Notes: generated by a model not told the origin, from the sequence alone. DNA of 64,000 bases from a phage (GCA_025823825.1 GCA_025823825.1_4720.1); one strand, 5' to 3'. Shown: positions 12,457 to 40,271, counted from the stretch's first letter. Numbers and translations: made by a program.

Positions 12457-14031
12457 TTACAATTCAAAATCTTCATCGATAACACGCTGGGTAAGCACTT
12501 TGTCGCTGAAGAACTCCACCTTGCGCTGATGGTATTTACGGTGCGCTTCGATAGAAGTACATACCAGATACCAGAACGTTGGCGTCATTCCTTCAAACTT
12601 TCCTTTCAGCTGACGCAGTCGTCCCAACACCTGAATGTTACCGGTTCGTGACCCCATCGCTAATGTCATGAACGTCATCACCAAGTCAGGAAGGTCGATA
12701 CCTGTACCTGCCGATTTCACCGTTGTAACGCTAATATCGTTATCCAGCAAGACCATGAAGTCTTCTTCAGCAGTATAAGGACCGATTTCTAACTCAGGGA
12801 TACGTTCACTGAGATAATGCGACAACGACTTACACATATCGACGGTTGCACAATACACCAGCATCTTCATACCTTCCTGATACTGGTTCATGAAACCCTT
12901 GATAATAACGGTATAGATGAAGTTAAAATACGCGAGTTTGAGTTGCTTGTTCTTCATGATAGACTGTTCGAATATCGTGTGCGAATAAGCTCCACCAAAC
13001 CCTTTGTATCTGACTTTATCTGTACTGCGTAGTCGGTACGTTACCGCATTTACCGCAATGTATTTCTTGTATTCGCCTTTCGCATAACGGGCTTCTTTCG
13101 GATACATCAAATACAGCATCTGTTCGATAAACGGATCATCGGATACCGCTGTTGCCGACAGATAAATGATTTCCGGAATATTGGCGTAACACTTGACCTT
13201 AAACAAGAAATGCAATGCTTCGTGACACTCGTCATGAATCAGCAAACCTATGCCGGTCTTTTCCCAAAACTCAGCGGGATGAAAGGCATATGGCGCAACG
13301 CAGTTATTCTTCTCGTAGTCCGCAATATAACGTTGGAACATGTTCAAGGAGAACAATGCGATTTTGAAGTCGAGTTCACCTTGTTCAACCAAGGTTTGAA
13401 ACTCCAACATACTGTAACGAGGAATGTCGGGATGCGGTGGATCCTCCTTAGCGTTCCCGCGTATCTCGATAACGTCCCCTGGTTCCATCCCGAAGAAGTT
13501 CAGCAGTGAGCTTCGCCAACCTGGCATGTATCTCGGCGACAGAATGATACCCGTCCGTACACCGCGTCGGAAGGTGATCTCCTGCGACATGGCCGTTTTT
13601 CCTGACCCCGTTTGAGCGGTGTTTAGGCTCATTCTGAAGGGGGTATCCTTACCCCCGTCCATGTACTCCAACCATTCTTGCTGATCTTGACGCCATGGAA
13701 ACTTCCATTTCTTTACGAACTCCACTTCTTTACCTGGTACCGGATCGTGATAGACGATTTCCAACCACTCTTTTCGTATCCCTCGGGAAAAGATAAAATC
13801 CAAAAACGATTTCAACTGTTCACGGAGTAAGTATACCTCGCTATAATCGCTTCTTGCCGCGGCATACGTGTTTATGGTATCGGTAACCATTCTCCGTGTA
13901 CGAGGGTCACGCCGTTTCCTCAGATGCAAACAACGGTCTCGAAGGTAATGGCCGATAAGATGGGCAAATCGAAGTCCGTATCCGCTCAGCCTCATGCCGT
14001 GCGAGAAGACGTCGATACGAGCTAACTTCAT
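12457..14031 (-). CDS. SF2 DEAD/DEAH-box helicase-like ATPase
   Basis: Walker A TGSGKT and DEAH-like HDECHE; ATGA start/stop overlap with upstream beta-prime-C gene. Confidence 0.6.
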   Translation of the reverse strand: MKLARIDVFSHGMRLSGYGLRFAHLIGHYLRDRCLHLRKRRDPRTRRMVTDTINTYAAARSDYSEVYLLREQLKSFLDFIFSRGIRKEWLEIVYHDPVPGKEVEFVKKWKFPWRQDQQEWLEYMDGGKDTPFRMSLNTAQTGSGKTAMSQEITFRRGVRTGIILSPRYMPGWRSSLLNFFGMEPGDVIEIRGNAKEDPPHPDIPRYSMLEFQTLVEQGELDFKIALFSLNMFQRYIADYEKNNCVAPYAFHPAEFWEKTGIGLLIHDECHEALHFLFKVKCYANIPEIIYLSATAVSDDPFIEQMLYLMYPKEARYAKGEYKKYIAVNAVTYRLRSTDKVRYKGFGGAYSHTIFEQSIMKNKQLKLAYFNFIYTVIIKGFMNQYQEGMKMLVYCATVDMCKSLSHYLSERIPELEIGPYTAEEDFMVLLDNDISVTTVKSAGTGIDLPDLVMTFMTLAMGSRTGNIQVLGRLRQLKGKFEGMTPTFWYLVCTSIEAHRKYHQRKVEFFSDKVLTQRVIDEDFEL

Positions 14032-16034
14032 AACGTGATTACATCCTCCGGTTTAGGTTCTTTACGCGGTAACAGCATGTAGTCGATCGGATGATCCGGC
14101 TTCATGGTTGGGATATAACTGTTCGGGTTTTGGAACGCATCCAGCTGCTCTTGGTGAGCGAACTTCATACTCAAGGAGCGCATGTTCATGTTCTTCTTGA
14201 AGGTACTGAAGTATCGTGTTGTTCCCTGTTTCGGCATGCGATAATCTTTCGTGTGCGGTGAACGAATCATGCTGGCGTAGAGAATAACATCGAGATGCGA
14301 AAGGTTCATTCGCAGACGCTGGGCACACAGACGATGCCAATAGTACAGCACGTTTGCAACTTCTTCCGGTGTTGCTTCGTCTTCCGAAAGGAATCCGGCA
14401 CTGAAAGAACCTTTCCCGAATTTGAATTCACGTTCGATTTCTTTTGCGTATTCCATCATGTTTTTGTGGATTAACGGCATCTGGAATAACGTACGTGAAT
14501 TGTCCCAATGTTTCAAGTCGAAAATCACAATCCCGTCAGACGTCACTTCCCAGCTATGGCGTTTAAGATAACGGATAAACGCTTTACTCGGTACAACAGG
14601 ACGTCCACAGAAATCGAAATTGACTTTGAGCTTACGATAGCTTTCATCTTTCCTGTCGTAAATCTCCATATCGCAAAGCGTCATGTTAAACAAGCGTTGC
14701 GGTATCAGCGAACTGATTTCTTCCGCTTCGGCTACGTCGTACAACATGTTCGCAAGACCTAACTTCATCTTAATCAGCACGTGTTTACCTTTCAGCTCAC
14801 GTGCGAGTTTGATGTCGTTCATGTTCTGGCTATAGCGAAGGATATGTTGATATTCCGGTGGGATTGGTGCTGTGGATACCGTTGACGAACCATCGTGGTG
14901 TTTGGTAGAAAGAATGTTCTGCGTCACCTGTTGCGAACAGGTACGCGCTGCGCCATCGCCGACATTATCAGTCAATGCGAAGTTATGACTTAATTCACCG
15001 TAACACGTTGTACATACCCCAGCAGGATCGGGATGATGACAATAGTTAACGGAGCGCATGCGTACCGTCGTGCCGATCAATTCTTTCATGTGTGGTTGTA
15101 TCGCTACCAACGAACCGTCATCACGAATAATGAATCGACCATGGAAGCCACGCAGGTCGGTCTCGTCGCGGATTGGCATCGGGATGGTCTCTTTACTACC
15201 ACAATCACCAGGATGGAGTCGTTGTACAACCGCTGTCGCTATCTGAAGTTCACGACCGAAATATTCAGACTTTTTAATCTGCTCTTTGTTGAACAGCAAC
15301 GATTTTGCCGCAGAACGACTTTCTTTCAAGCTGTCGGGAAGAGAGATCAAACCGGCTGCGTATGACCGCATTACTGGATCACGGAATATCTCGGAGTTAA
15401 TATCGGTCAAGAATCCACGCATCCCAATACACTGCAGCACCTGTCCAATCGAAACGTGTTCGGTTCTTACCGCACGTGCGATAGGGTTTGCATGTAACGT
15501 TTTATCGGTGCTCAGTACCTTTGTCAGTTTCTTGTATGCGCTTTCGATACCTTCACGGGTGGGTTCCGCTTCGGCGATGATTTTCTTAACTTCGGGATGT
15601 ACGGTAATCTGATAAAAATCGTCCGCGCAAATCGTTGTTACGTATTCCTCCAACGCATACGTAAAGAAGTTATATACGTTGTTGAACATATCGAACAGTG
15701 CTTTCCAGAGAACCTCACGATTCTCTTGTGGGTAAGCATACATGCATTGACGATACGCTGCGCTTTGCAACGCAACCGACGAACCAGCAGTAAACTTGCG
15801 TTTATCGACCAGGTTCTCTTTTGTCAATGGTGTCTCAGGATACATGCGATGCACAGACCAGTGCATGTAACTAAAGAAAATGCGTCGCGCACGCAATTCA
15901 TGAACGCCATCGTCCATCTCGATATATACACGGTCATTAGGCTGTGCCCACTCGAACACCTCATCAACCGGCCAATGCATAAGCTCGCGTGCCCTCACAC
16001 GACGTTTCGTGGTGGTCGTCTGTGTTATAGTCAT
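14028..16034 (-). CDS. multisubunit RNA polymerase beta-prime subunit, C-terminal piece
   Basis: RMRSVNYCHHPDPAGVCTTCYGELSH aligns with bacterial beta-prime [21 protein letters not shown] downstream of the bridge helix; trigger-loop-like TQNILSTKHHDGS. Confidence 0.6.
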   Translation of the reverse strand: MTITQTTTTKRRVRARELMHWPVDEVFEWAQPNDRVYIEMDDGVHELRARRIFFSYMHWSVHRMYPETPLTKENLVDKRKFTAGSSVALQSAAYRQCMYAYPQENREVLWKALFDMFNNVYNFFTYALEEYVTTICADDFYQITVHPEVKKIIAEAEPTREGIESAYKKLTKVLSTDKTLHANPIARAVRTEHVSIGQVLQCIGMRGFLTDINSEIFRDPVMRSYAAGLISLPDSLKESRSAAKSLLFNKEQIKKSEYFGRELQIATAVVQRLHPGDCGSKETIPMPIRDETDLRGFHGRFIIRDDGSLVAIQPHMKELIGTTVRMRSVNYCHHPDPAGVCTTCYGELSHNFALTDNVGDGAARTCSQQVTQNILSTKHHDGSSTVSTAPIPPEYQHILRYSQNMNDIKLARELKGKHVLIKMKLGLANMLYDVAEAEEISSLIPQRLFNMTLCDMEIYDRKDESYRKLKVNFDFCGRPVVPSKAFIRYLKRHSWEVTSDGIVIFDLKHWDNSRTLFQMPLIHKNMMEYAKEIEREFKFGKGSFSAGFLSEDEATPEEVANVLYYWHRLCAQRLRMNLSHLDVILYASMIRSPHTKDYRMPKQGTTRYFSTFKKNMNMRSLSMKFAHQEQLDAFQNPNSYIPTMKPDHPIDYMLLPRKEPKPEDVITL

Positions 16035-16179
16035 TATTGCTTTCCGATTTAAATGGTTTTATCATACGGTTTACCAAATCCGTTGGACTTTACTATCGTT
16101 GTGATAGCATCGGGAATCCCTTCCCTTAGGTTATGTAGGTGTTAATATATCTCCACTGCTGACCTTTATGTCGGCAGCA

Positions 16180-16665
16180 TTATCCAGCTTTCTGTTGTAA
16201 AGCGTATGGATCCATAGCGTCTGACATATCCGCAAAAACGGTGAGAATAAACCCCTTTATCTGTCTCACCTCGGTTACACGAAGCCCTTTATCATTGCGA
16301 TATACGTTTTCTTCACCGACTAACTTTGGTCGAATAACATAAACTCCATCAACAAGCGGGAATGTCGGATACGGATAAATACCAATACGAATGATGTTTG
16401 GGTGATCGCCTAGAAGGTCACGTCCAAACTTATCGACTCGACCATAAATCGCCCCATCCGCACCTTCCACTTCAATGAGATCATTTCGAATATCCTGAAA
16501 TAGTTGCTCTAACGTGTCGGCGGGATACGCATATGCGACGCCTAACGCCGGATCCTCGACGGTTTTGACACTGAATCCGTTAAGCCAAACAATCCGTTCA
16601 TCCGCCCATGTTTCTTCATATACCGTTAATCCATCGCCGTATATGTTGGCGTGTGCTATCTCCAT
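16180..16665 (-). CDS. hypothetical protein
   Basis: 161-aa ORF with AAGAGGAAA RBS. Confidence 0.5.
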   Translation of the reverse strand: MEIAHANIYGDGLTVYEETWADERIVWLNGFSVKTVEDPALGVAYAYPADTLEQLFQDIRNDLIEVEGADGAIYGRVDKFGRDLLGDHPNIIRIGIYPYPTFPLVDGVYVIRPKLVGEENVYRNDKGLRVTEVRQIKGFILTVFADMSDAMDPYALQQKAG

Positions 16666-16778
16666 AATCTCATTTCCTCTTATACGTTAGGATAGATGAC
16701 ATGTTGGATATACGTTGCCTTTGCATATATTGCTTTATTTCCGTCAGAAATAACGGAAAATAAAAACAACGACATAGT

Positions 16779-16809
16779 TCCCTCCCACCTCCACATGGGA
16801 GAGGGAGGG
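16779..16809 (-). terminator. stem-loop plus T-rich tract
   Basis: CCCTCCCACCTCC / GGGAGAGGGAGGG with T-rich sequence 3' on minus strand. Confidence 0.4.
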
Positions 16810-16822
16810 CTATTCGTGTTTA

Positions 16823-17185
16823 TTACTCTATGCTGTCTTCTTCAGCACAATCCTCTTCTGAACCGTCGAACGTTTTCTGCACTGCAGTGGTATCCCAGTT
16901 GGCAGCGTAATCAGCCATCGCTTCGCGCAGTGCTTCTTCACCAGCATCACCGGCCAGGTCAAGCACAACCAAACCTTGCGCGACGTTTTGAGCGACAGTA
17001 TCAATAACGGTCGCATCTTCTTCAAAACTACGTACCGGTTCAATGGTGCCTACATCAACAGCATAGTTCGTGGTCGCTGTAAGCACGGCGACTTGTAGCG
17101 CGTCGCTATCTTCATCATGCAATGCTGCTTCAATACCGATTGGACGGGCCAGTTCTTGCAGTGTTAATTTGCGAATTAAGTTCAT
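16823..17185 (-). CDS. hypothetical acidic protein
   Basis: 120-aa ORF followed by stem-loop plus T-tract. Confidence 0.45.
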   Translation of the reverse strand: MNLIRKLTLQELARPIGIEAALHDEDSDALQVAVLTATTNYAVDVGTIEPVRSFEEDATVIDTVAQNVAQGLVVLDLAGDAGEEALREAMADYAANWDTTAVQKTFDGSEEDCAEEDSIE

Positions 17186-17206
17186 TATATTTTCCTCAGG
17201 TGAATG

Positions 17207-17635
17207 TTAGCAATCGTTTAAAACTTTTTCGATACGATGGTTGACGAATTCATTGAACGACTCTTCGGCTTGTTCGATAATTTCATCAACGTCGATATCT
17301 AATTGTTGGGGTTGGATAACATGCTCTTTCATGGTTTCTAGCCAGTATTCGGCTTTAACCATAACGTTAGCGACATGTTCGACCTGACTGCGTATGTCGA
17401 CGATCTGGCAGTCAGGATTGTTAATATCGATGATGTGTCCGTGGTGGTTGATAAAACCTAGCTTATTTGATGCCCTTACCGCATCGCGGGTAAGTTCTTG
17501 CAAGATTAAATTATTGACGTAGTTCACTGCTACGGAACGATTTTCGTTATCACTCATACCAGGGATCCTCTTTAAGTCTTCACATTCTAGTGTTAAGCAG
17601 TTAAAATAAACCGTTCCTTTAATCAGCATAAACAT
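17207..17635 (-). CDS. hypothetical protein
   Basis: 142-aa ORF. Confidence 0.45.
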   Translation of the reverse strand: MFMLIKGTVYFNCLTLECEDLKRIPGMSDNENRSVAVNYVNNLILQELTRDAVRASNKLGFINHHGHIIDINNPDCQIVDIRSQVEHVANVMVKAEYWLETMKEHVIQPQQLDIDVDEIIEQAEESFNEFVNHRIEKVLNDC

Positions 17636-17675
17636 CCTCCTCCCACCACATGGGCAGGAGGAGGCGTAATATGCA

Positions 17676-18086
17676 TCAGAAAGGAGGACGATCTTTAAAT
17701 TCTAACAACGTGTCTTCGAAGCAAGCGATGAGTTCAGACTGCAATTCGGTACGGCCTTGTTCACCGAAGAGTTCCAGCAACATTAACCCCCGAGCGGTCT
17801 TCGTAGCAACCTCTTCGCAGATGCGGAGATCGTGAACTTCATCATCGTTGACATCTTTACGCAACTGTGCCGCAATGGGCTTAAGATTGCCGTTTTCATC
17901 GTGTTCGTCACGAAATGCATCATAAGCCGCATCGATGTTCGCGATCCGTGTCAATCCTTCAGAATCCCGCCAGTCTCGATATAATCCAAGCAGACGGTTA
18001 TGATTCTTCGTTTTGACGTTCGGTGCTGGAAGGTTGCGCAACAGATGTGGTGTAATCATTGCTATCACGCTATCCGAATGATCCAT
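17676..18086 (-). CDS. hypothetical protein
   Basis: 136-aa ORF. Confidence 0.45.
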   Translation of the reverse strand: MDHSDSVIAMITPHLLRNLPAPNVKTKNHNRLLGLYRDWRDSEGLTRIANIDAAYDAFRDEHDENGNLKPIAAQLRKDVNDDEVHDLRICEEVATKTARGLMLLELFGEQGRTELQSELIACFEDTLLEFKDRPPF

Positions 18087-18097
18087 CGTATACCTCG

Positions 18098-20268
18098 TTA
18101 GCTTTCGCAGTCATCTGCGTCGATGATTTGTCCGCCAGCAACGTTCAGTTGATGATACAGAATCCTCAACGCACGGTTGCCGCCAATGGGATATTTCTCG
18201 AAGTTGGTTGCAATAGGAATCGCTGACGGTTTATCGGTCGCATAGATGCTTTCGGTGATGCTATCCACCTGTTTTGGATTGTTCGCATAATCCATAAAGA
18301 CGCTTGCGAACCATCCGCCAGCAAAGGCGGTAACCTCACGATGTTCAGATTCGCCACAGTAACGAGTCGGTTGCTCTTTACCCGGAGAACTGTATTTATC
18401 GCTATTACTGAGTTTCGACGGTAATCCGTGCGCTTGCAATTTAGGGATACCCACCGCTGACCAATCGTTCGCCGTCTTCTCCAACATCATGATGTACGTG
18501 TCACCGATCGCAATATCGTTCTTGGTTGTCCGCCATTGCCCGGAACGCCCACGGTATCGTACAGGACCTTTCTTCAACGGGAACTCACGAATCAGATTCT
18601 CCATACGTTCTGAACCTGCTGCGATACTGTCCGTCGGGATATAAACTTCCGTACCGTGGCGTTGTACGTACCGTAAATGATCCCATTTATCCTCATCCGT
18701 GATACAGTATTTTTCAACAACCTGTTCCACGAACTCAGGACTGACGATATAGTAGTAGCGCATCAGTGTGTTCCAAGCGGTCTCCAGATCGCCTGCATCC
18801 ATCACCGGTTTCAGTTCACGCATGATCTGATCACCAACGCCGTTGATGTAAGGTGCGTTAACACGACTTAAACTCATCCTTTTGATTACCGTACTATCGT
18901 CGAACATGAAGTCCGCAACGTTACCCCATTGGTCGACCGGCATTTCATCGTCTTCCATGATGTCGGTTACGACGAATTTATCACCCGCCATACCGGTGAA
19001 TTTAAACCCGATACCTGGAACAACGTCGTACGTGTACGTGATGGTCACACGCCAATCATCGAGATTCTCTTTACGGTAATCGCGGGTTGGTAATACATGA
19101 CGTAGCTGTCCGTTGGGATTGCGGATATCAATACCATGTTCAGCATCAGCCAGGTTCAACCACCACATCACCGTTTGATGATGACGTATCGGCGTACCAA
19201 CGCGTTCACGTTCGTACTTACGAACAGCATCCTGAATTCGGGTGTAAAGCAAACCAATCGCGTTCTCGTATTTCAGGAATTGACGATACGGAGGACGCAT
19301 CTTCTCTTCCATCATAATCGCACGCTCGCGGGCTTGACGTCCAGAACGACGATGTCGGTCGCTGACAACATCGATATCCGTTACACGCGCATTCGGTTCC
19401 GCGTAAGTGAGATCATCGTAAACATAATCCACACGCTGAAGGTTACACGTCATCATGTCAACAACGCTGAGGATAGGATCGATTTCGCGTGTTGCTGCAA
19501 GTAACCCATCCTTACGAATACGCTCACCATTCTCGGGTATTGCTTGGTATACCTCGTCATCGCCGTAGAGATTGATTGGGTATCGTGATTTACCTGATGT
19601 GATCGTCCGCTTCTCAATGCCGGTACTGGTGAAATGCTTCAATACACCACGACGGGCAACACCACCATCCTCGATACACTGATAGAAGCTACCGAAACAC
19701 ACCTTGCAATCGCGACCGTAACCCCACTCGCGTGTTTCTTGATTGATCGCTGGGCTTTCCATCAAACGAGAATATCGCGGTACGATCTGGCCTCGACGGA
19801 GGGAATGGAACAAGTTGGTTGGTCGAAAACGGAAACCGTACTGCTGATGCATGATGTGATGCTCAGGCACTTCAAGCAAGCGTAGTTCGTGGCGGTTACC
19901 ATCCTCTTGGTTTTCGTACAGCACGTAATGCATCGTGTTTGTTTTGATGCTGTTTGCTGTATGCCCCGGTTGGAAACGTGGGATGATATCTATGATGCGA
20001 GATTCAACTGGAAACTCTACTGACCAAGTGTTCTGTCCGTACTGGTATTCGATCCCCGTCGTCAGTCGGGACGGTTTCGCATCTTTGATAACCAACGCTT
20101 GGCTAAGATGTCCGCCAAACATCGCAGCGCGCTGTGCTGAGTTATAATGCAATAGCCCGTTAAGTCCAGTCCCTACGCCAGTATACTCCTGTTTAATGGG
20201 AATGATTTTACCTTCAGCGATTGCCTGCTTCACAGATTCATAAAGAGGTTTTTCTTTATAATGCATAG
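18098..20268 (-). CDS. multisubunit RNA polymerase beta subunit, C-terminal piece
   Basis: AQRAAMFGGHLSQALVIKDAKP ~ beta [23 protein letters not shown]; GDK...DEMPVD...RMS ~ GDKMAGRHGNKG...DMPYD...SRMN; GDTYIMMLEK ~ GYMYMLKLNH. Track start 20431 is probably too long; ATG at 20268 (MHYKEKPLYE) has AGGAAG RBS. Confidence 0.7.
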
Positions 20269-20297
20269 GACTTCCTATTATCGAATTGAGGTACGTC

Positions 20298-20651
20298 ATG
20301 TCTAACACGCCCCTGAACGACTTTCTTAAGACAAACCCCGATGACCTCATCCACGATCTTGATTTCAGGAACGTTGTTGAGATGCATCTGGAATATTTCA
20401 AAAATGCCGGACTGGTCTCTACGATAGACATACCACCCGAACGTGCCTACGAATTCGATGGTAACTTTTATGGATTGTGTCGTGTTCTGCTCGGCGAGGG
20501 TAGCGAACCAATGCACTGGATAACCATGAGACTCAATGGTTATCGTGACCCTACGGAATACACCGCCGATGTTCTAACCATGAAGATTGTCGATACAAGC
20601 GCAATCAACACATTAAAACAACAGTACCGCACAATCCACTACAGCGCTTAA
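20298..20651 (+). CDS. hypothetical protein
   Basis: GAGGT RBS then ATG at 20298 (MSNTPLNDF); divergent from beta-C gene with about 30 nt between the two starts. Confidence 0.5.
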   Translation: MSNTPLNDFLKTNPDDLIHDLDFRNVVEMHLEYFKNAGLVSTIDIPPERAYEFDGNFYGLCRVLLGEGSEPMHWITMRLNGYRDPTEYTADVLTMKIVDTSAINTLKQQYRTIHYSA

Positions 20652-20716
20652 GATAACCCTCCCACAGCGTAAAGCGTAGGGAGGGCATTTATGCCGTCGT
20701 TCGATGACTTAACACA

Positions 20717-21997
20717 TCAGAAACGATTTACAGTACGTCCTGTCCACGCGCTCAGGATGTTGTTACGTTCCATCTCAGCACGACGACGTAAACCGTTTGG
20801 CGACTGCGGTGCTTGCGGCATCCCCCATCCAGCCGGTTGCATACCCATGCCCGGCCAAGCAGCGTTATTGAACATCGTACCGTTACGTTCCGCAACACGG
20901 TTCATCAGCGCATCAAACGTGCTATTACCTGCCGGTTGGTTACCACCACTTTCCCATTGATTAGGTTGGACAGGTGCGGTTTTACCTAACAGGTTATCGA
21001 TCACACTGCCTGTTGCAGCAGGACGCGGTTGCATACCTTCATGTGCGGCTGCCGATGGATTTGGCTTAACCGTCGGCTGTGGACGACTGTTCAGCGTTAC
21101 GCCCATGTTGTATTTCGCTGGCGGAATCTGACCACGATGTTGATTAATCGGTTCAAAATCCTCAACCCAGGTAACATCACAATAACCGTTCTCTTTACCG
21201 TCGTACTTATCACCAAACAGTTTGATGAGATTGTTCAGCGGTTCCATCAGCTTAGCGAAGCTGTGGATAAGACAATCGAAATACGGAGCATGGGGATCGC
21301 TTGACCCAGCGTTGTACGTTTCGCTTACTTCACCCGCGTGCGGGATAACGTACTCAACCAGGTTTCTCAGCATGTTAAGATCTTTCTTGGAAATCTCAAC
21401 ACCACACCAATACGTTTTCTTATCTTTCGTGCTGATGTGTTCTTCTTCCATGAACGGGAAAGTAACGACCGCAACGCGGGTCATCTTCTTACCCATGTAG
21501 GTTGCACCAGTACGACGAAGATAAATTTTGGACAGCGTATACGGCGTATCACGTTTCAGCCAAACGGTGACCAGTTTGCCCAGGGTCGTTAGTGTTTTAT
21601 CGCTGGCGTCCGCAAGGATGTTGAAGAACTCTTTTTGCTTCGGCCCGAAACGTTTTGCTTCTTTAGGATTGATTGCGGTTTCAACCATCCAAATCAGCAT
21701 GGAGCATAGCGTGGCATTAAAACGAACAACCATCGCGCGGCGCAGGAACTGAAGGACTTCCGATTCGCCGTTCATCACGTCTTCACTTAGCGGATGGAAC
21801 AGCACACGTTCAGCCAGCTGATTTCCGGTACGAACTTCAGAAACCGGCATCAGCAACGGCATGCTTTCCACGGTAGCGGCAACTGCAACAACTTTACCAT
21901 CCCCATCCGTAAAACGATATTCTAATTCGTGGGCGTCATTCTCAAAATAGTTAACGCTCTGTAGTGCTTTGCGATAAGCTTCGATAAGCTTCGACAT
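20717..21997 (-). CDS. hypothetical protein with Gln/Pro/Gly-rich low-complexity C-terminus
   Basis: 426-aa ORF with AAGGAAA RBS. Confidence 0.55.
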   Translation of the reverse strand: MSKLIEAYRKALQSVNYFENDAHELEYRFTDGDGKVVAVAATVESMPLLMPVSEVRTGNQLAERVLFHPLSEDVMNGESEVLQFLRRAMVVRFNATLCSMLIWMVETAINPKEAKRFGPKQKEFFNILADASDKTLTTLGKLVTVWLKRDTPYTLSKIYLRRTGATYMGKKMTRVAVVTFPFMEEEHISTKDKKTYWCGVEISKKDLNMLRNLVEYVIPHAGEVSETYNAGSSDPHAPYFDCLIHSFAKLMEPLNNLIKLFGDKYDGKENGYCDVTWVEDFEPINQHRGQIPPAKYNMGVTLNSRPQPTVKPNPSAAAHEGMQPRPAATGSVIDNLLGKTAPVQPNQWESGGNQPAGNSTFDALMNRVAERNGTMFNNAAWPGMGMQPAGWGMPQAPQSPNGLRRRAEMERNNILSAWTGRTVNRF

Positions 21998-23640: not shown

Positions 23641-25229
23641 TTATTTTTTTCCTCTTAAATTTACTACGTGTTCATTTAATCGAACAACTAATTGCACAAG
23701 TTGCTGACGGATATCTGCTGGACAAAGCATCAATCCTTTACGATCAGCTGGGACTTTCTCAAGGATTTCCGGGCCTGCTGCTGAAACATCCCAGTCCCAT
23801 TCACAAAACGCATCGGCCACCATGTTAATACCGACAACCGGTAAAGTTGTACGTTCATCTTCATACATGGCGTGTGGATACAATTTATTGACAGTAATGA
23901 TCTCCTGTGGTTTTAATTGGTGGATAATCTGATAAACATCGTCGCGTTTAACCTGGATACCTACGGTCAGCGCTGCCAGTTGAGGAAAACCCCAATGGTC
24001 TAATAAGCAAGCTGCAATCGCTAACGCTTTTGCTTGATGCACGGCTTCAATCGGTGCCAGACTTCTCGCCGGAAGATGGCTATCAAGCAACCATTGTGCC
24101 AGTGCTCGGCATCCACGGTTGATTGGTTTTAACTCAACGCTGTCATCGTGCTTAGCGTACGTGTATCCGTCGTAACGTTTTGCGATACGCGCATACATGT
24201 CTTCAACTTTACCGTAAGGTGCCGTTTCGTCGACGTCGTGTAACACACGTTCCATCTGGGTAAGATACGCGATGTCAAGAATGAGTACACGCGGTGAACG
24301 TTTATCTTTCACCATCAACGCATCAATCACGCCTTGACTGTCTTCATCTTGCGCGTTCCCTCGTGGGGTTTTCTCACGAATCGGTCCGCTGAAACGTCGT
24401 TCCGTACAAAGGTTATTCACATAGCTAAAGATCAGTGTTACCAGATGCGTACAACTCACCAACACCCCATCTTTAACGACAGGCTGTACGGCTTGGTCCA
24501 AGTCGCGTACGGCGAGACGGCGGACGATGGCTTGTGAACGCAACCAGCCGGGCACTTTCTCCGTCGACATGTAATCCACGGTCATCGACAGCGTGATCTT
24601 TTTATCACCCGTCTGTGCGCGGATATAGTCTTCCAGTCGGTCGTAAGCGGCGATATCATGAATGCGTGTTTTATACATCAACGACATAGCCACTTCTTCT
24701 TTACGGACTGTCCCGTACGTTTTCCCTGCGTCAATCAGAAACTCTGCCCAAATCGGCACCATCAGACGGACATAGATCGCTAACGCTGTTAACTCAACGT
24801 AATCATTTCGTAAATAGGTTTTCTCGGGTATATCGTCCTCACCTAATGTTGTTTTCATGTCCGGTGGTAATTTTACCCAACCTGGGGTATTACACAACGC
24901 CAGAATCTCTTCATACACAACCGGTTTGTAAATCTCACCAACAGCGCGACTCAACTCCTCCATTTGTTGTTGTGGAGCAATGTAGTTATCCATCGCTTCA
25001 CGTGCTTTAACGAACCCTTCGAAGATGTCGTCAATTCGACGTGGGTTCTTTTGTTCTATCCAGGCGAGATACTTGTTAATCTCCCGCATCTGATTGCTAG
25101 CCATATCCCCATCAATCTTGATGTAACCCTGGCCTGAAAATTCCACAGTACGTCCATCACGATGTTTGATGAGATAGTGATCCAGCTTTTCTTTTCCTTG
25201 CGTCGTAATGACGGGCACTATGTGCATAA
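23641..25229 (-). CDS. hypothetical protein
   Basis: Track start 25362 lacks an RBS; ATG at 25229 (MHIVPVITT) has AGAGG RBS. Confidence 0.55.
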
Positions 25230-32123: not shown

Positions 32124-32348
32124 TTAGCAATGGTTGTTAGTTGCTTCTATTTCGTCAAGATAAGGTTCTACGTCATCGCCCTCCACGAATTCGTTGAACC
32201 AGCAGTCAATGGTAGAAATAACCGGTGACTGGTGTTCACATTTCTTAGATACCTTAAAAGGTACGTTATTATCCATCATACCGAGTTCGGGTCGAAAACG
32301 CCCGAAATGTTTCGCAGTCCAAATGTCTGGGACGATATGGTTGTTCAT
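32124..32348 (-). CDS. beta-prime-N exon 4
   Basis: Begins AUG AAC AAC CAU AUC GUC CCA (MNNHIVP, ~ MAVHVP / MNLHVP after DFDGD); a stop 3 codons upstream of the track start 32363 rules out a simple upstream extension. Confidence 0.5.
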   Translation of the reverse strand: [74 protein letters not shown]

Positions 32349-34714
32349 CGTAGCGTTCAGCATGAGTCGCTACCTCATGCCCGCAGCTTTACCTGCAGCT
32401 TCCGGTGTTACCGGAATGTCCAGAATACATCTTATCCATATTCCAAATGGAACGTAGGACTTCCGCGCTGGATCTCGCTTGAGACCACGTATTCGTTGAA
32501 CGTTCTCCTGAACGGAGCTTCGCTGCTGATCGAACATTGTCATGTACGGTAGGCGTCCCCGAAGGGATTGTCATTGAAGCCGCGTACATCCGCTACCTTG
32601 TTTCTACCTTATCGGTTCCTCTTACGAGGCGTAGCGGCCTTAGCCCTTCCCAGCAATTCACGGAATCCAAGCTCTTCCTTTCGGAAGGCAGGGCCTATGA
32701 TTAAGCATCCCCGTCGCTGTTATCGACTATATCTTCATCCTCGTTGCGAGGAGTCTCCCGTTTTGGTCTGTGTTTAACAGAGCCTACTCTACTCGACATC
32801 GCGTCTTTCGATAGTCTGTGAGCACACATCTTAACGAACATTCGTGGATTCCTAAACAGGTGAACGTTCTTGTTGAGATGCTTCGCTGCGGATTATTCCC
32901 GTCCTACCTCTTTTACCCTACCCAGTTCATTACGCTGGCCCTCATCTGTGTCACCACGATGAGTTGGTGTGTAGTCCGATTACAGAAACTTCCCGTCAAT
33001 TAGAGAGTTTTAACTACGTTCCTGTTACCAGAAACCAGATCCCGACGGTATCAATAAATCAACGTAAGTTATTGATTTAATTGAAAAAACTGAAATCTGC
33101 ATTATCTTAATCTTCAGTATGGTTCGCTACTCCATACCCGTACGTCATGTACTGCTTACGTCTTTCACGTAAGAAGAGACTATATCTTTCACCCTCAGCA
33201 TTATCTGGTCGGGGCTCCCATTTCGGCGGTCAGATGACCGGTGGTTTCCCACGCCGCTTGGCCCTAACGCCCGTAAGCGATAGTCGTTGAGCGCATCTCC
33301 GTTCTGGAGACTTCGCTGCGGATTCCCCAATCCTTGCCGCTTTTACCATACCTGAATGATTAGTTCAGCCCCACGCTCTGTTCCCAGGCGTGGTTGGTGG
33401 ACAAGGCTCTAAGTAGGTTCCCGCATTAGAGAGTTCTGCGTGACAACATTTCTGCGTTACTGGGCCTAACGACCCTTTCAAGATCATCACGCTTAACCCG
33501 ATGGTGTTATCCTGCGGATCGCGTTTAACCTTGGTGATTTCAAGACATTGGTTACTGCTTCGGTCAAGTGATGGGTTTCGAACAAAGCCACACACAATCC
33601 CATCGAACGGTGTATCAGCAATAAGCTCATCGTGCAGCTCGCTCATCATTGGATGATAATTACGGACATGTTCCGCAACGAACGCACGTGCTGCTCTCGG
33701 TGAATAACCACGATGGAATAACTTGGATTGGATATGTTCTTTATTGGTTAAAGTAAATGGTGCGTATGGGAAATGCAGATGATAATAACGATGGTTCGCT
33801 GTTATCGAACTGATTACGGTACGCGTGGTGAATGGATGTAATGTACCTAATATGTTTTTACGTGTGATACCTTTCTTCTTACCAATGAACTCATCGAAAA
33901 TTGCTGCGTGGTATTGCAGTAGCTTCAATTGCACTTTCGCCATCCAGTTTTCTTTCTTTCTGGCGCTCAAAGGTGTTGTTGGGTGATAGATACTGTTCAA
34001 CGTACCAATAGCATCGATCGCACCTTCCATTTTGCTATCTGCATAACGACCGGTTGGCGTATTCTCGATAACGAACATCATGGCCGCAGGAAAGCTGATA
34101 TACTGGCTGAAGAACTTATCACGATGGATACGGATGAATTCTCGTAGCGTGTCAACTTTCTCCGTGTTCTTCGGTCCACGTAACGTAGGTCCTTTATACA
34201 AGATCTCCATTATGCGATCGAAGTTCTGTATAAAGCTATTTACGCCGCGACGTATCCCGAATACATCGAATTGCTGCTCCAGATAGTTCTTGAGTTCGAT
34301 GGGTCGTTTTACATTTGGACGGTAACTGGCATCAATGAGCCACGTCATCGTTTCAAAGCTTTTGATATTCAACTCGCTTGCCAGCACGAGATGGACCAAC
34401 GGGTTAATGAACGCATCAATTCCTTCAGGAACACGCGCCCAAACCGTCGAACGAATCTCCTGTTCTGCCGGGTAGGTCACGACCGTTTTACAGTTTGGAC
34501 ACACCGTGCCGAGTAGCTCACCACGATTGTAGAAACCACAACCACATTGTGGTGTGATATCCAACGTATCGCTGGAGTAAACACGGGTGATAAAACTGTT
34601 TAATTTCTTCTTCTCTTCGACGACTTTTGTATCGTAATCATTCAACAAAATCGGCGTAAAAGGAAGTTCTGCGAGCTGTCTATCGAAACTCACGATATCG
34701 AGCATGATGGCCAT
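32124..34714 (-). CDS. RNA polymerase beta-prime subunit, N-terminal piece, interrupted by three group I introns; predicted mRNA join 34714..33472, 33105..33093, 32716..32704, 32348..32124
   Basis: Zinc finger CGCGFYNRGELLGTVCPNC (CxC-x13-CxxC), RNPSLDR ~ [15 protein letters not shown] ~ IQLHPLVC. Unspliced ORF ends in junk without the catalytic motif; the join restores [21 protein letters not shown] in frame (1494 nt, 497 aa). Confidence 0.6.
32349..32703 (-). ncRNA. group I intron 3 (ORF-less, 355 nt, divergent P7)
   Basis: Third copy: GGUAGAAACAAGGUAGCGG, CAGCAGCGAAG, P7 5' strand GAAUA (32494..32490) with complementary 3' strand UAUUC (32427..32423), two P9-like hairpins, terminal G at 32349. 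Confidence 0.45.
32704..32716 (-). CDS. beta-prime-N micro-exon 3 (13 nt, CGACGGGGAUGCU)
   Basis: Completes F then encodes D-G-D-A; ends in U; a UAA follows in frame if unspliced. Confidence 0.45.
32717..33092 (-). ncRNA. group I intron 2 (ORF-less, 376 nt)
   Basis: Second copy of the same core: GGGUAGGGUAAAAGAGG...AAUCCGCAGCGAAG (32923..32881), CACAGACUAUCG with GACUA at 32816..32812, GAAGAUAUAGUCG (32736..32724), terminal G at 32717. Confidence 0.5.
33093..33105 (-). CDS. beta-prime-N micro-exon 2 (13 nt, AUAAUGCAGAUUU)
   Basis: With the preceding U encodes Y-N-A-D and first two bases of F; ends in U. Confidence 0.5.
33106..33471 (-). ncRNA. group I intron 1 (ORF-less, 366 nt)
   Basis: Tetrahymena-type core elements on the minus strand: GGUAUGGUAAAAGCGG...AAUCCGCAGCGAAGUC (33352..33311), P7 5' strand GACUA (33285..33281), J8/7-P7 3' strand AGAUAUAGUC (33187..33178), P9-like hairpins, terminal G at 33106. 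Confidence 0.6.
33472..34714 (-). CDS. beta-prime-N exon 1
   Basis: AGGAG RBS and ATG at 34714; exon ends ...AAA GGG U with U at 33472 as first base of the Tyr codon. Confidence 0.55.
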
Positions 34715-34756
34715 GGGGTATCTCCTACAAATGAAAAAGAACGTTAGGACGTATAA

Positions 34757-34780
34757 GGGAGGGAGGTTGCCCTCCCTCCC
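34757..34780 (-). terminator. GC-rich stem-loop between chimallin candidate and beta-prime-N
   Basis: GGGAGGGAGG-TTGC-CCTCCCTCCC perfect 10-bp stem; T-rich sequence follows after a short gap on the minus strand. Confidence 0.4.
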
Positions 34781-34806
34781 GTCAGATTACATCGAACGTT
34801 CTTCCA

Positions 34807-36702
34807 TTAGAACAGGTTGAATGCCCCACCCATGTTGTTAACGCCAACATTCGGACGATCGCTACGTGCGTAGATGTTACCGGAGATGTTACCCAGACCA
34901 CGAGCACGTGCTGCCATGTTACCACGAACAGCGGTACCTGCCAGATGCTGGATGTTCTCAGGACGGATGGTGAAGCCAGCATCAGCAGCAGCTTCGATCA
35001 GCGCCTGCAGTGCTAACGGATCGAAGTCGTAACGCATTGCCCAGCCGGTTTGTTCCCAGCTACCAGACAGAACACGATCGATGATTTCGTGACGAGCGAC
35101 AACACGCTGAGACATCGTCATATCGGTACGGTCGAAGCTGTCTTCCCAAGCTTCTACGGTATCCGGGTTAGTGATGTTCATCATGTACAGATCGTCCATA
35201 TCACGAATATCGTGACGGTGACCATCCTGGTGGTTGTAGTGACCCAGCGGGATACGGTTACCGGTAGCGTAGACCAGCGGTAAGCCGTATTGATATTTCT
35301 TGCTGAAGCAACCCAGGGTAACATCATCGAAGGCACGGTAGAGTGCTTTGTAACCTTCAGAGACTTCCCGAACATCAGCCTCAACATTACCCGTATAGAT
35401 CTTCTCAGCCGCCGGGATCATACGCAGCAGCCAGCTGTATTCGCCTTCTTCCGGTACGTCGATAGAAATCAGCAGGGACGGATACAGTACCTGTTGCAGG
35501 AACTTGTAAATCTGCTCATTGGTTTGAGTAGACAGATCCAGCGGTGCGGTAACTTCCGGATCCAGCACCATCGCCAGAGCACCCGGGTTATGCGGACCGA
35601 TACCACGAGCAGCGTTGCTGATTAAAGACTGCGCCCATGCCATGCCGCTGTTCAGCGTAGCGATGGTGCCAATCAGACCCAACACGAAAGTGTTCGGTGT
35701 GAACGCATCCAGCTCCAGCGGGTAAGCGCTGGTCATCACGTAACGCGGCTGGTATTGTACAGTCGGCGGTACCGGATAACCGTTAACCAGAACAGGGCCT
35801 TGGTTGAAGGTCGGGTTCTGCGGGCTGTAAGTCAGGTCAATGTAACCGGTGGTGGCGACCAGACGCTGTTGACTATCGTAATCGCTCATCGCTTGACGGA
35901 TGCGGTTAGAGATAGTTACAGTGATGTCAGAACGCACAGGGTTACCAACAATATCGCTGTCCTGCATACCGCTGGTGTTGTACTGAACGCTGCTGATTGG
36001 CTGATCGCTTGCCATCATGCCCAGGTTGAACTGCGGCAGACCCAGTTTATCACCGAGACGGATTTCGATTGCGGTCTGGATTGCGTTATCTGCAGCAGAC
36101 AGCAGGGTGGTCGCCAGATGCGCAGATTCAGCGGTGATTTCATTGGTCACCACAGCCAGACCAGCGATACGAGCAGTACCATTAGACTTACCGCCAATAG
36201 CTGCATACATTGCCGCCATGACTTCGTTGATGAACGTACCGTTCAGGTTATCAACCCAGGTACGCGGTACCAGAATGTTACCATGCGGACCTTGTTCTTC
36301 ACGACGCGGCAGCGGAGCCAAACCGGCAACCAGCGGAAGCACATAACCGAAGAAGTGGTTATGATCACCAACTTTTGCACCACTCATAACGACCAGGGTC
36401 GGATACGGTACGCTGTACTGGTTCGGGTCAACCGCAACAAAGATGAAGTCGTCTTTGAACTGGGTATCTTCCAGATATTTCTCCATCAGACGACGGAGAT
36501 TCAGTACCTGCTCGGAGCCGGTATTACGGCTGATACGACGGCTCAGTGTACGGTTGATCGTACGCATCGTATGAGTTACTTTAGGACGGTCGGCAAAATC
36601 TGCAGCGGTTTCCAGCGCCTCATCAGCACGTTGTGCGGTGCGGGTTTCAGCTGCACGAATTTCTACATTATCGTTACCGTTATTACGTACGTCTAAGCCC
36701 AT
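34807..36702 (-). CDS. chmA: candidate chimallin (phage-nucleus shell protein)
   Basis: 631-aa ORF with AAGAGGAA RBS directly upstream of beta-prime-N, as I recall for phiKZ gp54-gp55; size matches described chimallins; promoter-like motif 66 nt upstream. No sequence comparison possible here. Confidence 0.45.
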   Translation of the reverse strand: MGLDVRNNGNDNVEIRAAETRTAQRADEALETAADFADRPKVTHTMRTINRTLSRRISRNTGSEQVLNLRRLMEKYLEDTQFKDDFIFVAVDPNQYSVPYPTLVVMSGAKVGDHNHFFGYVLPLVAGLAPLPRREEQGPHGNILVPRTWVDNLNGTFINEVMAAMYAAIGGKSNGTARIAGLAVVTNEITAESAHLATTLLSAADNAIQTAIEIRLGDKLGLPQFNLGMMASDQPISSVQYNTSGMQDSDIVGNPVRSDITVTISNRIRQAMSDYDSQQRLVATTGYIDLTYSPQNPTFNQGPVLVNGYPVPPTVQYQPRYVMTSAYPLELDAFTPNTFVLGLIGTIATLNSGMAWAQSLISNAARGIGPHNPGALAMVLDPEVTAPLDLSTQTNEQIYKFLQQVLYPSLLISIDVPEEGEYSWLLRMIPAAEKIYTGNVEADVREVSEGYKALYRAFDDVTLGCFSKKYQYGLPLVYATGNRIPLGHYNHQDGHRHDIRDMDDLYMMNITNPDTVEAWEDSFDRTDMTMSQRVVARHEIIDRVLSGSWEQTGWAMRYDFDPLALQALIEAAADAGFTIRPENIQHLAGTAVRGNMAARARGLGNISGNIYARSDRPNVGVNNMGGAFNLF

Positions 36703-36767
36703 TTGGGATTCCTCTTTTCTTAAACTTTATTAAATGACGTCATTGAATCAGCTTCTACTCGCTCATT

Positions 36768-36791
36768 CACCTAGGTAATATAACCCTGAAA
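36768..36791 (-). promoter_or_regulatory. promoter-like motif, copy 3 (upstream of chimallin candidate)
   Basis: Plus strand CACCTAGGTAATATAACCCTGAAA; 66 nt upstream of minus-strand start at 36702. Confidence 0.5.
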
Positions 36792-36956
36792 TTTTTTTCA
36801 ATATTGGTGTAACCACATTGAACGATATAAACCCCTAGGCGAACGCTGCCGAGAAGCAACATTCTTTCTACATATAATCAGGATATGTCTGTAAACTTTT
36901 ACTTCTCTTATTGAGAGTAATGTCATATCCGTTTACTACCTTCTTACGGAGTTCGT

Positions 36957-38051: not shown

Positions 38052-38117
38052 TCACCTCCCTCTTCCCTTGCATCCTCCCAACCCGTAAGGGAAGGGAGGA
38101 TGGGGTGGCGGGTTATG

Positions 38118-40271
38118 TTATTCTGCGGTTTCTTGCTTCGGTAAATAACTTGCTGCAATGTCTTGGGCTAACAATGTATTGTTTTTATTCGAGATGAAAA
38201 TACCGTAACTTTCCATTAACGCGTAATACGAACGAACGAGCGTAGAGATCAATCGACGAATATCCATACCTTGAATAAAGATATCAGGAAGCCCGGAGGC
38301 TTCGATCACCGGTAATGGTATCGTTAAGTTGCTTATCGTTTTCTTATCGTTACGTACAATCCAATCACGGAAACGTTGTTGTAACCCTTTATCCTCCCAT
38401 GAATCAATCCAATCGTTAAGAAGCGTTTTGTTCTTCGTCGCCAACGGCACACGCACCCCAACATAGGGCGGTTCGGGGCAATGACCGTACGATTGAGCAA
38501 ACACCTCTTCCCACATATCGTAAGACTGTTTCGTTACTGCAACATGCGGCTTCACTTTAACACGCGTTAAGAAATCGGGATCACCACGTTTCATTGACTC
38601 AACGATTTCGTTTTCTAACGAGATAATATCATCAAGAACCAATCGAATGCTGATCTTCTCATTACGTAACAGCTTATCCATGATACCACACATCATGCGT
38701 TCAACACGTTTGACGATCATTTTTGGTGCTGACGCGTCACGCATAACCGGACCTTTCAATTCCAGCTTCGGTGGATTGATAGGAACCCCTTCACGCATGG
38801 TCATGTACCCGTAATAGTTTTTACCCATCGAGGTTAACGACAGAATCAAGAACATATATTCGTTCTTCATTTCCATTACGTACATATGCTCTTTCGCTAC
38901 ACCGATATTACCAGAACACATCGCCATCAGATGAACCGTAATCTGCGTAACCAGATAGATAAGCGTATTTGCTAAGCGCGTCGAAATTGGATTGATCTCC
39001 ATATTTCCAAATCGCCACTGAACCCACTCCTGGCAGGTAAACACCGTCGAGTCGGTATCAGACAACACACCCACTTCACGGATTGCTGATGGGAAAGCAT
39101 AAACGCCAGCCGGTTGGTTCTCGGTACGCCAGAACGCCATAATCAAATCTGCGTAGCTTTGAATACGCTGTAACATCAATTTTGTCGTTGCTGCAGTAAG
39201 ACGATAACCAAGTTCATTTCCTTTTTCTAGCGCTACGTAAATCGCTTCCCCGTTCAAGAACTCCGTGCATTGTGCTGTAATCCAAGCGACCGTGTTGTTA
39301 TCCATGGAAGCAATAATGGCTTTAGCCTCTTCCATCGTTTCAACAGGTTCGGCTGCCAGTTCACATAACGAGTCAAGAAAATCTCGAACAAATTCAGGAT
39401 TAAGCTCACGTAACGAGTACAGGTTATTGCTGTACATGTAGCAGGCGCGTTCCAGTGGGGTTAAACCGGTAATTAACTCCCGGATAGTCAGTTCTTTCTC
39501 CGGGTCGAAAGTATATCGATGCAAACATTTCGATACGTTAGCCCAAACCTCTTCCGGCGTAGGGTAATGCAGTTTGTATTTTACCATTACCTGTTCAATG
39601 GCGTTACGATCGCTGTTGCGGACAATACTTACGATGTTTTCAATTGCAATATCACAATCGTAATAATGGAAATTGCCCGCAAGGAAACGTTCGTTGTTCG
39701 CATTGGCTGAACCTGAGGCACAGCGACACGTTGTCGTTAAACTTGGATGCGCGATCGGATTATAAAAAGGGTTAAACTTGGACGCCTGGGTTCCTGACAA
39801 ACTGTTATTATCTAACTTGGTGTTGGTCTGTCGTTTATCGTGTAACTCAGCTTCATCTTTACGTCCGTGTGCTTGTGCTATCGACATTTGTTTCTTTTGT
39901 TTCTTACGCAACTTACCGTTTTCAACCGCAAAGTCGCTTAGCACACTGGAACGTGTTTCACGTGGATAACAGTTAGCCCATACCGGCGTGATAATTAAAT
40001 TATTTTCTTTAATATCATTGAAGTATTGGCTGAACTTGATGACTTCTTTTTCTCGATTTCCTTCGGTACGCTGTGTTAATACAAGACAGTCGGGATCAAC
40101 CATCCCGTATTTTCCACCGGGACGAACCGTATCAAGGACAAACTGCAACGCTTCCTGCTGTGATATCCCACGCATGCGCATTAAGAACAGGGTATAATCC
40201 TGTACCGCTTCTTTGGTCATATCCAACGTACGACCATATCCGTTTTCATCGTAAAAGAACGGATTTTCCAT
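38118..40271 (-). CDS. possible RNA polymerase beta subunit N-terminal piece
   Basis: 717-aa ORF; QSYGHCPEPPYVGV near C-terminus resembles beta fork-loop HYGRVCPIETPEGPNIG; also contains a DTDS string. Assignment is weak. Confidence 0.4.
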   Translation of the reverse strand: MENPFFYDENGYGRTLDMTKEAVQDYTLFLMRMRGISQQEALQFVLDTVRPGGKYGMVDPDCLVLTQRTEGNREKEVIKFSQYFNDIKENNLIITPVWANCYPRETRSSVLSDFAVENGKLRKKQKKQMSIAQAHGRKDEAELHDKRQTNTKLDNNSLSGTQASKFNPFYNPIAHPSLTTTCRCASGSANANNERFLAGNFHYYDCDIAIENIVSIVRNSDRNAIEQVMVKYKLHYPTPEEVWANVSKCLHRYTFDPEKELTIRELITGLTPLERACYMYSNNLYSLRELNPEFVRDFLDSLCELAAEPVETMEEAKAIIASMDNNTVAWITAQCTEFLNGEAIYVALEKGNELGYRLTAATTKLMLQRIQSYADLIMAFWRTENQPAGVYAFPSAIREVGVLSDTDSTVFTCQEWVQWRFGNMEINPISTRLANTLIYLVTQITVHLMAMCSGNIGVAKEHMYVMEMKNEYMFLILSLTSMGKNYYGYMTMREGVPINPPKLELKGPVMRDASAPKMIVKRVERMMCGIMDKLLRNEKISIRLVLDDIISLENEIVESMKRGDPDFLTRVKVKPHVAVTKQSYDMWEEVFAQSYGHCPEPPYVGVRVPLATKNKTLLNDWIDSWEDKGLQQRFRDWIVRNDKKTISNLTIPLPVIEASGLPDIFIQGMDIRRLISTLVRSYYALMESYGIFISNKNNTLLAQDIAASYLPKQETAE

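Follow-up and report, generated by a model that had tools for sequence, protein, structure and literature searches.

A non-virion RNA polymerase gene block in a Goslar-like jumbo phage, with three predicted group I introns at the β′-N catalytic motif

A 64,000-nt stretch of phage DNA (GCA_025823825.1_4720.1; the whole stretch is called the window) was analyzed for genes of a multisubunit RNA polymerase (RNAP). The source is very probably a Goslar-like, nucleus-forming jumbo phage of E. coli (Chimalliviridae) in which the block at 12457-36702 holds genes for four of the five non-virion RNAP (nvRNAP) subunits, the β-N subunit is encoded elsewhere, a 717-aa open reading frame (ORF) encodes a DNA polymerase, and the β′-N gene carries three group I introns. 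An earlier note on this DNA had proposed four pieces of a split RNAP. The four ORFs exist on the minus strand with the motif strings it quoted, and the identities given to three of them as β′-C, β-C and β′-N hold against the chains of PDB 7OGP, with E values of 1e-59 to 1e-86.

Megablast of 14028-34714 returned Escherichia phage vB_EcoM_Goslar as the closest match (98.2% identity, 98% of the query) and no other close nucleotide match. The window's counterpart in the 237-kb Goslar genome (NC_048170.1) runs from about 135.5 to 200 kb. RefSeq labels Goslar gp165, gp171 and gp247 'RNA polymerase beta subunit' and gp244 'DNA polymerase', and between these genes it places the nuclear shell protein and an HNH endonuclease beside an 'Intron_gpI' feature.

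Subunits of the non-virion RNA polymerase

The β′-C subunit is encoded at 14028..16034 (minus strand) as a 668-aa protein homologous to phiKZ gp74 and to Goslar gp165. A phmmer search aligned residues 11-654 to residues 4-671 of 7ogp_D (PHIKZ074) with E = 1.3e-86, and weaker matches were found to bacterial β′ residues 733-947. The protein matches phrog_3015 with E = 5e-170 and, as a weak secondary match, a second RNAP family, phrog_2962, with E = 3e-10. The GVCTTCYG string occupies residues 339-346, and phiKZ C288, C341, C350 and C353 have their aligned counterparts in the cysteines of HPGDC, NYC and GVCTTC, so that the Cys4 zinc site is conserved. By alignment, β′-C is a separate polypeptide that carries the bridge-helix and trigger region together with the zinc site.

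The β-C subunit is encoded at 18098..20266 (minus strand) as an uninterrupted protein of 722 aa, the homologue of phiKZ gp71-73 and Goslar gp171, with AGGAAG located 7 nt upstream of its ATG. It matches 7ogp_C with E = 6e-86, phrog_3295 with E = 1.5e-180 and E. coli β residues 1063-1241 with E = 0.006. The ORF contains AQRAAMFGG (44-52), KDAKP (61-65) and GDK (428-430), and K422 and K430 in GFKFTGMAGDK align with the phiKZ catalytic-centre lysines K386 and K394. The single ORF spans both phiKZ gp71 and gp73, which are divided in phiKZ by the gp72 ORF, and the earlier statement that only β′-N is invaded by introns agrees with this continuity. The coordinates given earlier for β′-C, β′-N and the 717-aa ORF were exact, and those for β-C (18098..20268) ran 2 nt too far, to a length of 2171 nt that is not a multiple of 3 and fails as a translation. 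The roles in phiKZ of DFDGD, the β-C lysines and the β′-C zinc cysteines have been described (PMC8287921). Five small ORFs at 16180-18086 (minus strand) separate β′-C from β-C; they correspond to Goslar gp166-gp170, all hypothetical, and the two subunit genes are adjacent in phiKZ.

A further subunit, which the earlier note had not listed, is encoded at 23641..25227 (minus strand). Its product, a phage-specific protein of 528 aa, is homologous to phiKZ gp68 and to Goslar gp175, a subunit type with no sequence similarity to β or β′. It matches PHIKZ068 (7ogp_B, 9rjs_B) with E = 3e-27 over residues 20-517 of 521, gp68 in a local phmmer comparison with E = 5e-32, and phrog_3209 with E = 4e-68, and it keeps the syntenic position. 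In phiKZ, gp68 is the fifth, sigma-like subunit, without which the enzyme is neither active nor able to bind promoters (PMC8287921, PMC7598289).

The 717-aa ORF at 38118..40271 (minus strand; Goslar gp244) had been offered as a possible β-N on the basis of a YGHCPEPP string, here located at residues 595-602. It is a divergent family B DNA polymerase from end to end. Residues 9-705 (697 of 717) align to positions 3-704 of the 705-position Pfam profile PF20286 (divDNApol) with E = 4.2e-204 and 680 bits against a cut-off of 25.7; phrog_2927, a DNA polymerase family, matches with E = 5.6e-206; and the polymerase motif C sequence DTDS lies at 405-408. No similarity to gp123 or any other phiKZ RNAP subunit was detected even at E<=10. 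The β-N assignment was rejected on these grounds, and a match of this protein to an unrelated family is what the earlier note had itself named as refuting that piece of its proposal. The ORF has no sequence relative in the PDB, and phiKZ gp82, annotated as a DNA polymerase, matches no window ORF at E<=1, so the DNA polymerase call rests on Pfam, PHROG and the Goslar annotation.

No window ORF matched gp123, the phiKZ β-N, at E<0.01. Goslar served as the positive control: a tblastn search with gp123 located its gene at 39951-41621 (E = 4e-49, 96% coverage), about 94 kb beyond the position of the window's left edge. The window therefore holds four of the five nvRNAP subunits and no complete core, and the gp123 homologue probably lies elsewhere in the genome. 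The earlier proposal of a complete β/β′ core within 27 kb, made up of the 668-aa and 722-aa proteins, the split β′-N and the 717-aa protein, drew on the proximity of four large minus-strand ORFs and on the YGHCPEPP string; with the fourth protein a DNA polymerase and the true gp123 homologue at a distant position in Goslar, it is now close to impossible.

The earlier note had also held that sequence could not decide whether the pieces come from one enzyme or from both the virion and non-virion sets. A mixed set has some grounds: chimalliviruses encode both enzymes and split them in similar ways (PMC7598289), and β′-C has its weak secondary match to phrog_2962. Local comparisons were made with phiKZ subunits taken from the phiKZ record, using the subunit lists of PMC8287921. 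Each RNAP protein of the window matched solely its non-virion counterpart; none matched the virion subunits gp80, gp149, gp178 or gp180 at E<=10, and no window ORF gave a virion-subunit homologue at E<=1. The PHROG families for β′-C, β-C and β′-N concur, with E values of 1e-113 to 1e-180. The genes are also arranged as in the phiKZ nvRNAP block: the 15 consecutive minus-strand genes at 12457-36702 are collinear, in inverted orientation, with phiKZ gp75 (helicase) to gp54 (chimallin). The exclusive non-virion matches and this synteny make the polymerase set decidable from sequence after all, and a mixture of the two sets is highly improbable. Judged by homology and gene order, all of the pieces belong to one enzyme, the nvRNAP solved for phiKZ (PDB 7OGP).

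The interrupted β′-N gene

An intact DFDGD motif is absent from all six frames of the window. The β′-N gene spans 32124..34714 (minus strand) from first ATG to last stop, and its exon-intron model was built from Rfam matches and comparison with Goslar. Exon 1 (33472..34714, 1243 nt) contains codons 1-414 and the first base of Tyr415, and encodes the zinc ribbon (CGCG...CPNC) and most of the double-psi β-barrel. It matches 7ogp_A (PHIKZ055/056.1) with E = 1.3e-59 and positions 1-413 of the 478-position phrog_2987 profile with E = 2e-113, and its residues 1-414 are 100% identical to Goslar. Predicted group I intron A (33106..33471, 366 nt) interrupts the Tyr415 codon (GGG U/AU, the slash marking the splice site). 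It is followed by the 13-nt micro-exon 2, ATAATGCAGATTT (33093..33105), which finishes Tyr415, encodes N416, A417 and D418, and begins Phe419. Intron B (32717..33092, 376 nt) lies in the Phe419 codon (UU/C), and the 13-nt micro-exon 3, CGACGGGGATGCT (32704..32716), finishes Phe419 and encodes D420, G421, D422 and A423. Intron C (32349..32703, 355 nt) lies between the Ala423 and Met424 codons (GCU/AUG). Exon 4 (32124..32348, 225 nt including the stop) encodes residues 424-497 and matches phiKZ gp56.1. All of these elements are on the minus strand, and no endonuclease ORF is present within the three introns (32349-33471).

Joining the exons produces a 1494-nt ORF encoding 497 aa that reads SVMILKGYNADFDGDAMNNHIVPD across the junctions and restores YNADFDGDAM. 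DFDGD then lies at 418-422 and NADFDGD at 416-422, collinear with phiKZ 415-421, and the spliced C-terminal region is collinear with 7ogp_A residues 363-495 (E = 7e-26). The 'reconstructed DFDGD' and the plural introns of the earlier note are borne out: the motif appears only after three introns are removed, and only then is the piece with the zinc ribbon and the DxDGD barrel complete. A functional β′-N is accordingly predicted to need removal of three group I introns, probably by self-splicing.

Scanning the whole window with Rfam at the gathering threshold gave no intron match. With E-value reporting, three tandem matches to the group I intron family RF00028 appeared on the minus strand: intron A with 32 bits (E = 6e-6), intron B with 46.9 bits (E = 2e-10) and an end exactly at 32717, and intron C as a weak, partial core match with 16.7 bits (E = 0.23). 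P1 helices taken from the 5′ ends of the RF00028 alignments put an in-frame stop into the exon for intron B and the splice site on the wrong strand for intron A; they were discarded and replaced by guides found by inspection.

Inspection and a pairing check revealed the same arrangement in all three introns. Each 5′ exon has a terminal U that pairs with G in P1, the last base of each intron is G, and the P10 and P1 guide segments are adjacent (A, GUUA/GGCCC; B, GUCG/GGAUCU; C, UCAU(A)GGC; the slash here divides P10 from P1). In intron A, P1 is formed by GGGU/C-GUUA-GGCCC with U.G at the splice site, P10 pairs UAAU with GUUA, and the last base is G. The intron B guide, 5′-GUCG/GGAUCU-3′, pairs through P10 with the 3′ exon CGAC and through P1 with the 5′ exon AGAUUU. 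In intron C, P1 is formed by GCU/U-AAUCAU-AGGC with U.G at the splice site, P10 pairs AUGA with UCAU and adjoins P1, and the last base is G. The micro-exons would play a double role, each being the P10 partner of the intron upstream and the P1 partner of the intron downstream.

The P1 pairing of intron B covaries with its exon. Goslar has exon CGACUU with guide GAGUCG, whereas the window has exon AGAUUU with guide GGAUCU, a difference that includes two fully compensatory base-pair changes. The two introns differ at five positions in the first 373 aligned nt, three of which fall inside the 6-nt guide; a sixth mismatch lies in the last 3 nt, beyond the point at which Goslar carries its homing endonuclease gene. 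Intron C is 99% identical to its Goslar counterpart.

The 3′ splice site of intron C was chosen by homologue spacing and by the identity of the spliced protein across differing intron sets. A first splice model of 501 aa, which read CTGAACGCTACG as coding ('ALNAT'), was rejected after comparison with uninterrupted homologues and with the Goslar-like contig L007 (described below). In this alternative, intron C ends 12 nt earlier (after CAUG, 32361), exon 4 starts at 32360 and the protein reads DFDGDALNATMNNH. In its favour are an in-frame junction preceded by a G and the resulting 'ALN', which resembles the DGD-x-LN of phiKZ, RAY and Xoo-sp14. The interval from DGD to the next conserved Asp is exactly 8 residues in RAY, PhiPA3, Xoo-sp14, SPFM16 and the solved phiKZ protein; the 497-aa model has this spacing, but the 501-aa model has 12. 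The 501-aa model also forms a poorer P10 (CUGA with UCAU, one mismatch, versus none for AUGA with UCAU) and counts as exon 12 nt that are homologous to the 3′ tails of related introns. It has no equivalent site in L007, which otherwise encodes the identical protein, and the extra difference from Goslar that it adds (A426T) would lie within those 12 nt. The 497-aa model is preferred because of the 8-residue spacing, the intron-tail homology of the 12 nt, the better P10 and the same protein across layouts, and the longer product is an unlikely, though not negligible, alternative.

The last 12 nt of intron C (32349-32360, CTGAACGCTACG) read in frame as Leu-Asn-Ala-Thr, resemble the DGD-x-LN-x-x of other chimallivirus β′ proteins, and partly repeat the ATGAACAACCAT that follows. 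Possibly the tail derives from the 3′ exon of a donor gene and arrived together with the intron. RefSeq annotates the exon 4 region of Goslar as a separate 'hypothetical protein', gp185, with a start 15 nt further upstream, and the in-frame tail explains why that start is placed at an upstream Met.

Several points count against the account given here. Splicing is deduced from the sequence. All three introns score below the RF00028 gathering score of 50, with intron C weak (E = 0.23), and their folding energies are only modestly better than those of shuffled sequence (z from -1.3 to -2.6), as computed by minimum-free-energy folding, which does not represent the pseudoknotted group I core. The alternative 3′ site of intron C, 12 nt upstream and in frame, would add four residues (LNAT). 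The β-N gene was seen in the 98%-identical Goslar reference rather than in DNA of this phage, the non-virion status is assigned by orthology, and the text of the Goslar paper gives only 10 structural-protein genes and does not mention RNA polymerase.

Intron variation among related phages

A protein-seeded scan of IMG/VR recovered Goslar itself and two further Goslar-like contigs, L007 (IMGVR_UViG_3300011560_000001) and L008. An exact 30-mer reaching from the 3′ end of intron A through micro-exon 2 into intron B had no match in IMG/VR. L008 has the three introns of the window, with lengths of 365, 376 and 355 nt. Goslar has introns B and C at the window's sites and reads straight through GGT TAT AAT in place of intron A. 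Its intron B contains a 1064-nt insert with an HNH gene (gp186) between intron nt 373 and 374, bounded by a perfect 14-nt inverted repeat (TTACGTGCACCGAC and GTCGGTGCACGTAA); intron plus insert occupy 33216-34655 of the extracted Goslar locus. Intron B of the window is without the insert, so the endonuclease gene was gained or lost independently of the intron. L007 has two introns of 350 and 357 nt (5240-5975), one of them at the intron C site. The other, C-like but with a 3′ tail resembling that of intron A, marks a fourth site, between Ala417 and Asp418; an 18-nt micro-exon divides it from the intron C orthologue. These genomes are 94-98% identical and together display three layouts at four insertion sites: A, B and C in the window and L008; B with HNH plus C in Goslar; and the fourth-site C-like intron plus C in L007.

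The predicted 497-aa β′-N is identical in the window, L007 and L008 and has one residue changed in Goslar. This near-constancy of the protein across three intron layouts is the strongest support for the exon model. It also bears on whether β′-N is instead a pseudogene in decay, disrupted by non-splicing insertions while polymerase function comes from another source. A pseudogene would account for the lack of an intact DFDGD in any frame, for the fragments annotated by RefSeq and for intron scores below the Rfam gathering score. Decay is difficult to reconcile with a conserved product in four genomes, with exon differences near the junctions that are all synonymous, and with an intron B guide that co-varies with its exon. 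Goslar, with two of these introns, is viable and well studied, and phiKZ gp55 is interrupted near the same motif, yet its joined product is present in the solved enzyme. A pseudogene is thus very unlikely, and a spliced gene is the preferred interpretation.

Exon differences between the window and Goslar cluster at the introns. Seven of the 31 substitutions fall within 56 nt round the junctions (about 8-fold enrichment, Fisher p = 9e-5), all seven being synonymous; they are located at window positions 33440-33500 and 32340-32720, which are positions 1233-1265 of the coding sequence. Such a cluster would fit either co-conversion tracts left by intron homing or escape from an endonuclease that targets this site. 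A 3′ hairpin with a GUAGCGA loop is common to introns A and C and the two L007 introns, suggesting that a single intron family has been spreading between adjacent sites. The phage collection contained no close relative of intron A, only partial core matches of about 70% to other phage group I introns. An 88-nt segment of intron A (33237-33324) matches positions 65-152 of Escherichia phage Av-05 at 85.6% identity, and its nt 182-359 (about 33113-33290) are about 69% identical to another Av-05 locus, beside an HNH endonuclease and a DNA polymerase gene.

Many jumbo-phage β′-N homologues, in a sample of 60 records spread over a set of 307, stop aligning at query residues 416-424, so the DFDGD motif looks like a general insertion hotspot. 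The 26 nt encoding YNADFDGDA are tentatively considered, at somewhat less than an even chance, to be an intron-insertion hotspot in active turnover through gain, ectopic spread, loss of the endonuclease and target-site escape, all within an essential gene. Such turnover may be linked to the interference competition between phages that is known for PhiPA3 gp210. The literature searched held no description of three ORF-less group I introns within 26 coding nt that are polymorphic among near-identical genomes.

Relation to other phage polymerases, proposed function and neighbouring genes

The RNAP gene set is already known from phiKZ, PhiPA3, RAY and Goslar and is annotated in Goslar, so the polymerase finding is itself ordinary and the intron packing is a modest novelty. 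Goslar has the same gene order (gp165, gp171, gp175, and gp247 with gp185) and shares the sites of introns B and C; the window differs in its extra intron A and in lacking the HNH insert, and Goslar RefSeq leaves the β′-N exons unjoined. The phiKZ nvRNAP (gp55, gp68, gp71-73, gp74 and gp123) has the same five-subunit composition by homology, with the same split points, catalytic residues and gp54-gp75 block, at about 25-35% identity to the window proteins. The two differ in the placement of interruptions. The phiKZ gp55 gene has a single interruption, containing an HNH gene, a few nt away and just before ADFDGD, whereas the window β′-N has three ORF-less introns. In phiKZ, the β-C gene (18275-21595 of the phiKZ sequence) is interrupted as well (gp71, gp72 ORF, gp73), but it is intact in the window. 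The gp72 interruption falls directly after FKMTDFHG, inside the G-D-K stretch with the catalytic-centre lysine K394. Thus phiKZ is interrupted at active-site motifs of both barrel subunits, and the Goslar-like phage in β′ only.

In Staphylococcus phage Twort, orf142 is reportedly one gene with three self-splicing group I introns. That gene likewise has several group I introns; here, three fall within 26 coding nt and leave two 13-nt micro-exons. Jumbo-phage RNAP genes are already well known as hosts of mobile introns (PMC11620839, PMC12908238). The PhiPA3 intron that encodes endonuclease gp210 is likewise a group I intron at a conserved codon of an essential RNAP gene (PMC11620839). Its endonuclease nicks the virion RNAP gene of phiKZ (PMC12908238), whereas the window introns lie in the catalytic loop of nvRNAP β′ and have no endonuclease ORF. 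The nvRNAP of Bacillus phage AR9 (PDB 7S00, 7S01) gives weaker significant matches for β′-N, β′-C and β-C (E = 1e-7 to 2e-17). It has the same split architecture and a fifth promoter-specificity subunit (PMC7598289). AR9 is much more distant, with a uracil-containing genome, no phage nucleus and DYDGD in place of DFDGD.

Homology with phiKZ suggests how the enzyme would be produced (PMC8287921; bioRxiv 10.64898/2026.09.21.753271). The nvRNAP genes would be transcribed early by the virion-delivered RNAP. According to the exon model of the window, the three group I introns, 13 nt apart in the YNADFDGDA codons, would self-splice and join exon 1, the two micro-exons and exon 4 into the 497-aa ORF. 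After translation in the cytoplasm the products would be imported into the phage nucleus, where a five-subunit enzyme lacking α and ω would assemble and transcribe middle and late genes. Catalysis would involve the Mg-binding DFDGD loop of β′-N and β-C lysines K422 and K430, β′-C would supply the bridge helix, trigger loop and zinc site, and the gp68-like protein would act as an integral sigma-like promoter-binding subunit.

The analysis corrects the annotation of this region: the block contains four nvRNAP genes that can be assigned to one enzyme, and the neighbouring 717-aa gene is a DNA polymerase. For β′-N, the correct product is predicted to form after the loss of two introns from the Mg-binding motif in Goslar and of three in the window. 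Should the three-intron layout with its 13-nt micro-exons splice as predicted, it would be a compact natural test of the limits of group I intron packing, and it would bear on the turnover of introns and homing endonucleases at an essential active site among near-identical phages.

The nvRNAP genes sit in a conserved block of chimallin, ChmC, nvRNAP and helicase genes, as defined by the collinearity with phiKZ gp54-gp75. The block also holds homologues of phiKZ gp70, gp69, gp68, gp67 (ChmC), gp66, gp65 (SbcD-like) and gp59. Equivalent conserved chimallivirus blocks are known in PhiPA3 (PMC11077065) and RAY (PMC10299810). The homologue of phiKZ gp67 and PhiPA3 ChmC, an RNA-binding, nucleus-associated protein, is encoded at 25432-26220 and chimallin at 34807-36702 (Pfam PF25677, E = 2e-25), both on the minus strand. 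The PhuZ tubulin gene lies at 44661-45641 (minus strand), identified by its position relative to Goslar gp234. Two long plus-strand ORFs lie wholly antisense to genes of the block, one of 286 aa at 22629-23489 opposite the gp69-like gene and one of 313 aa at 35755-36696 opposite chimallin, and both are most likely non-coding shadow ORFs.

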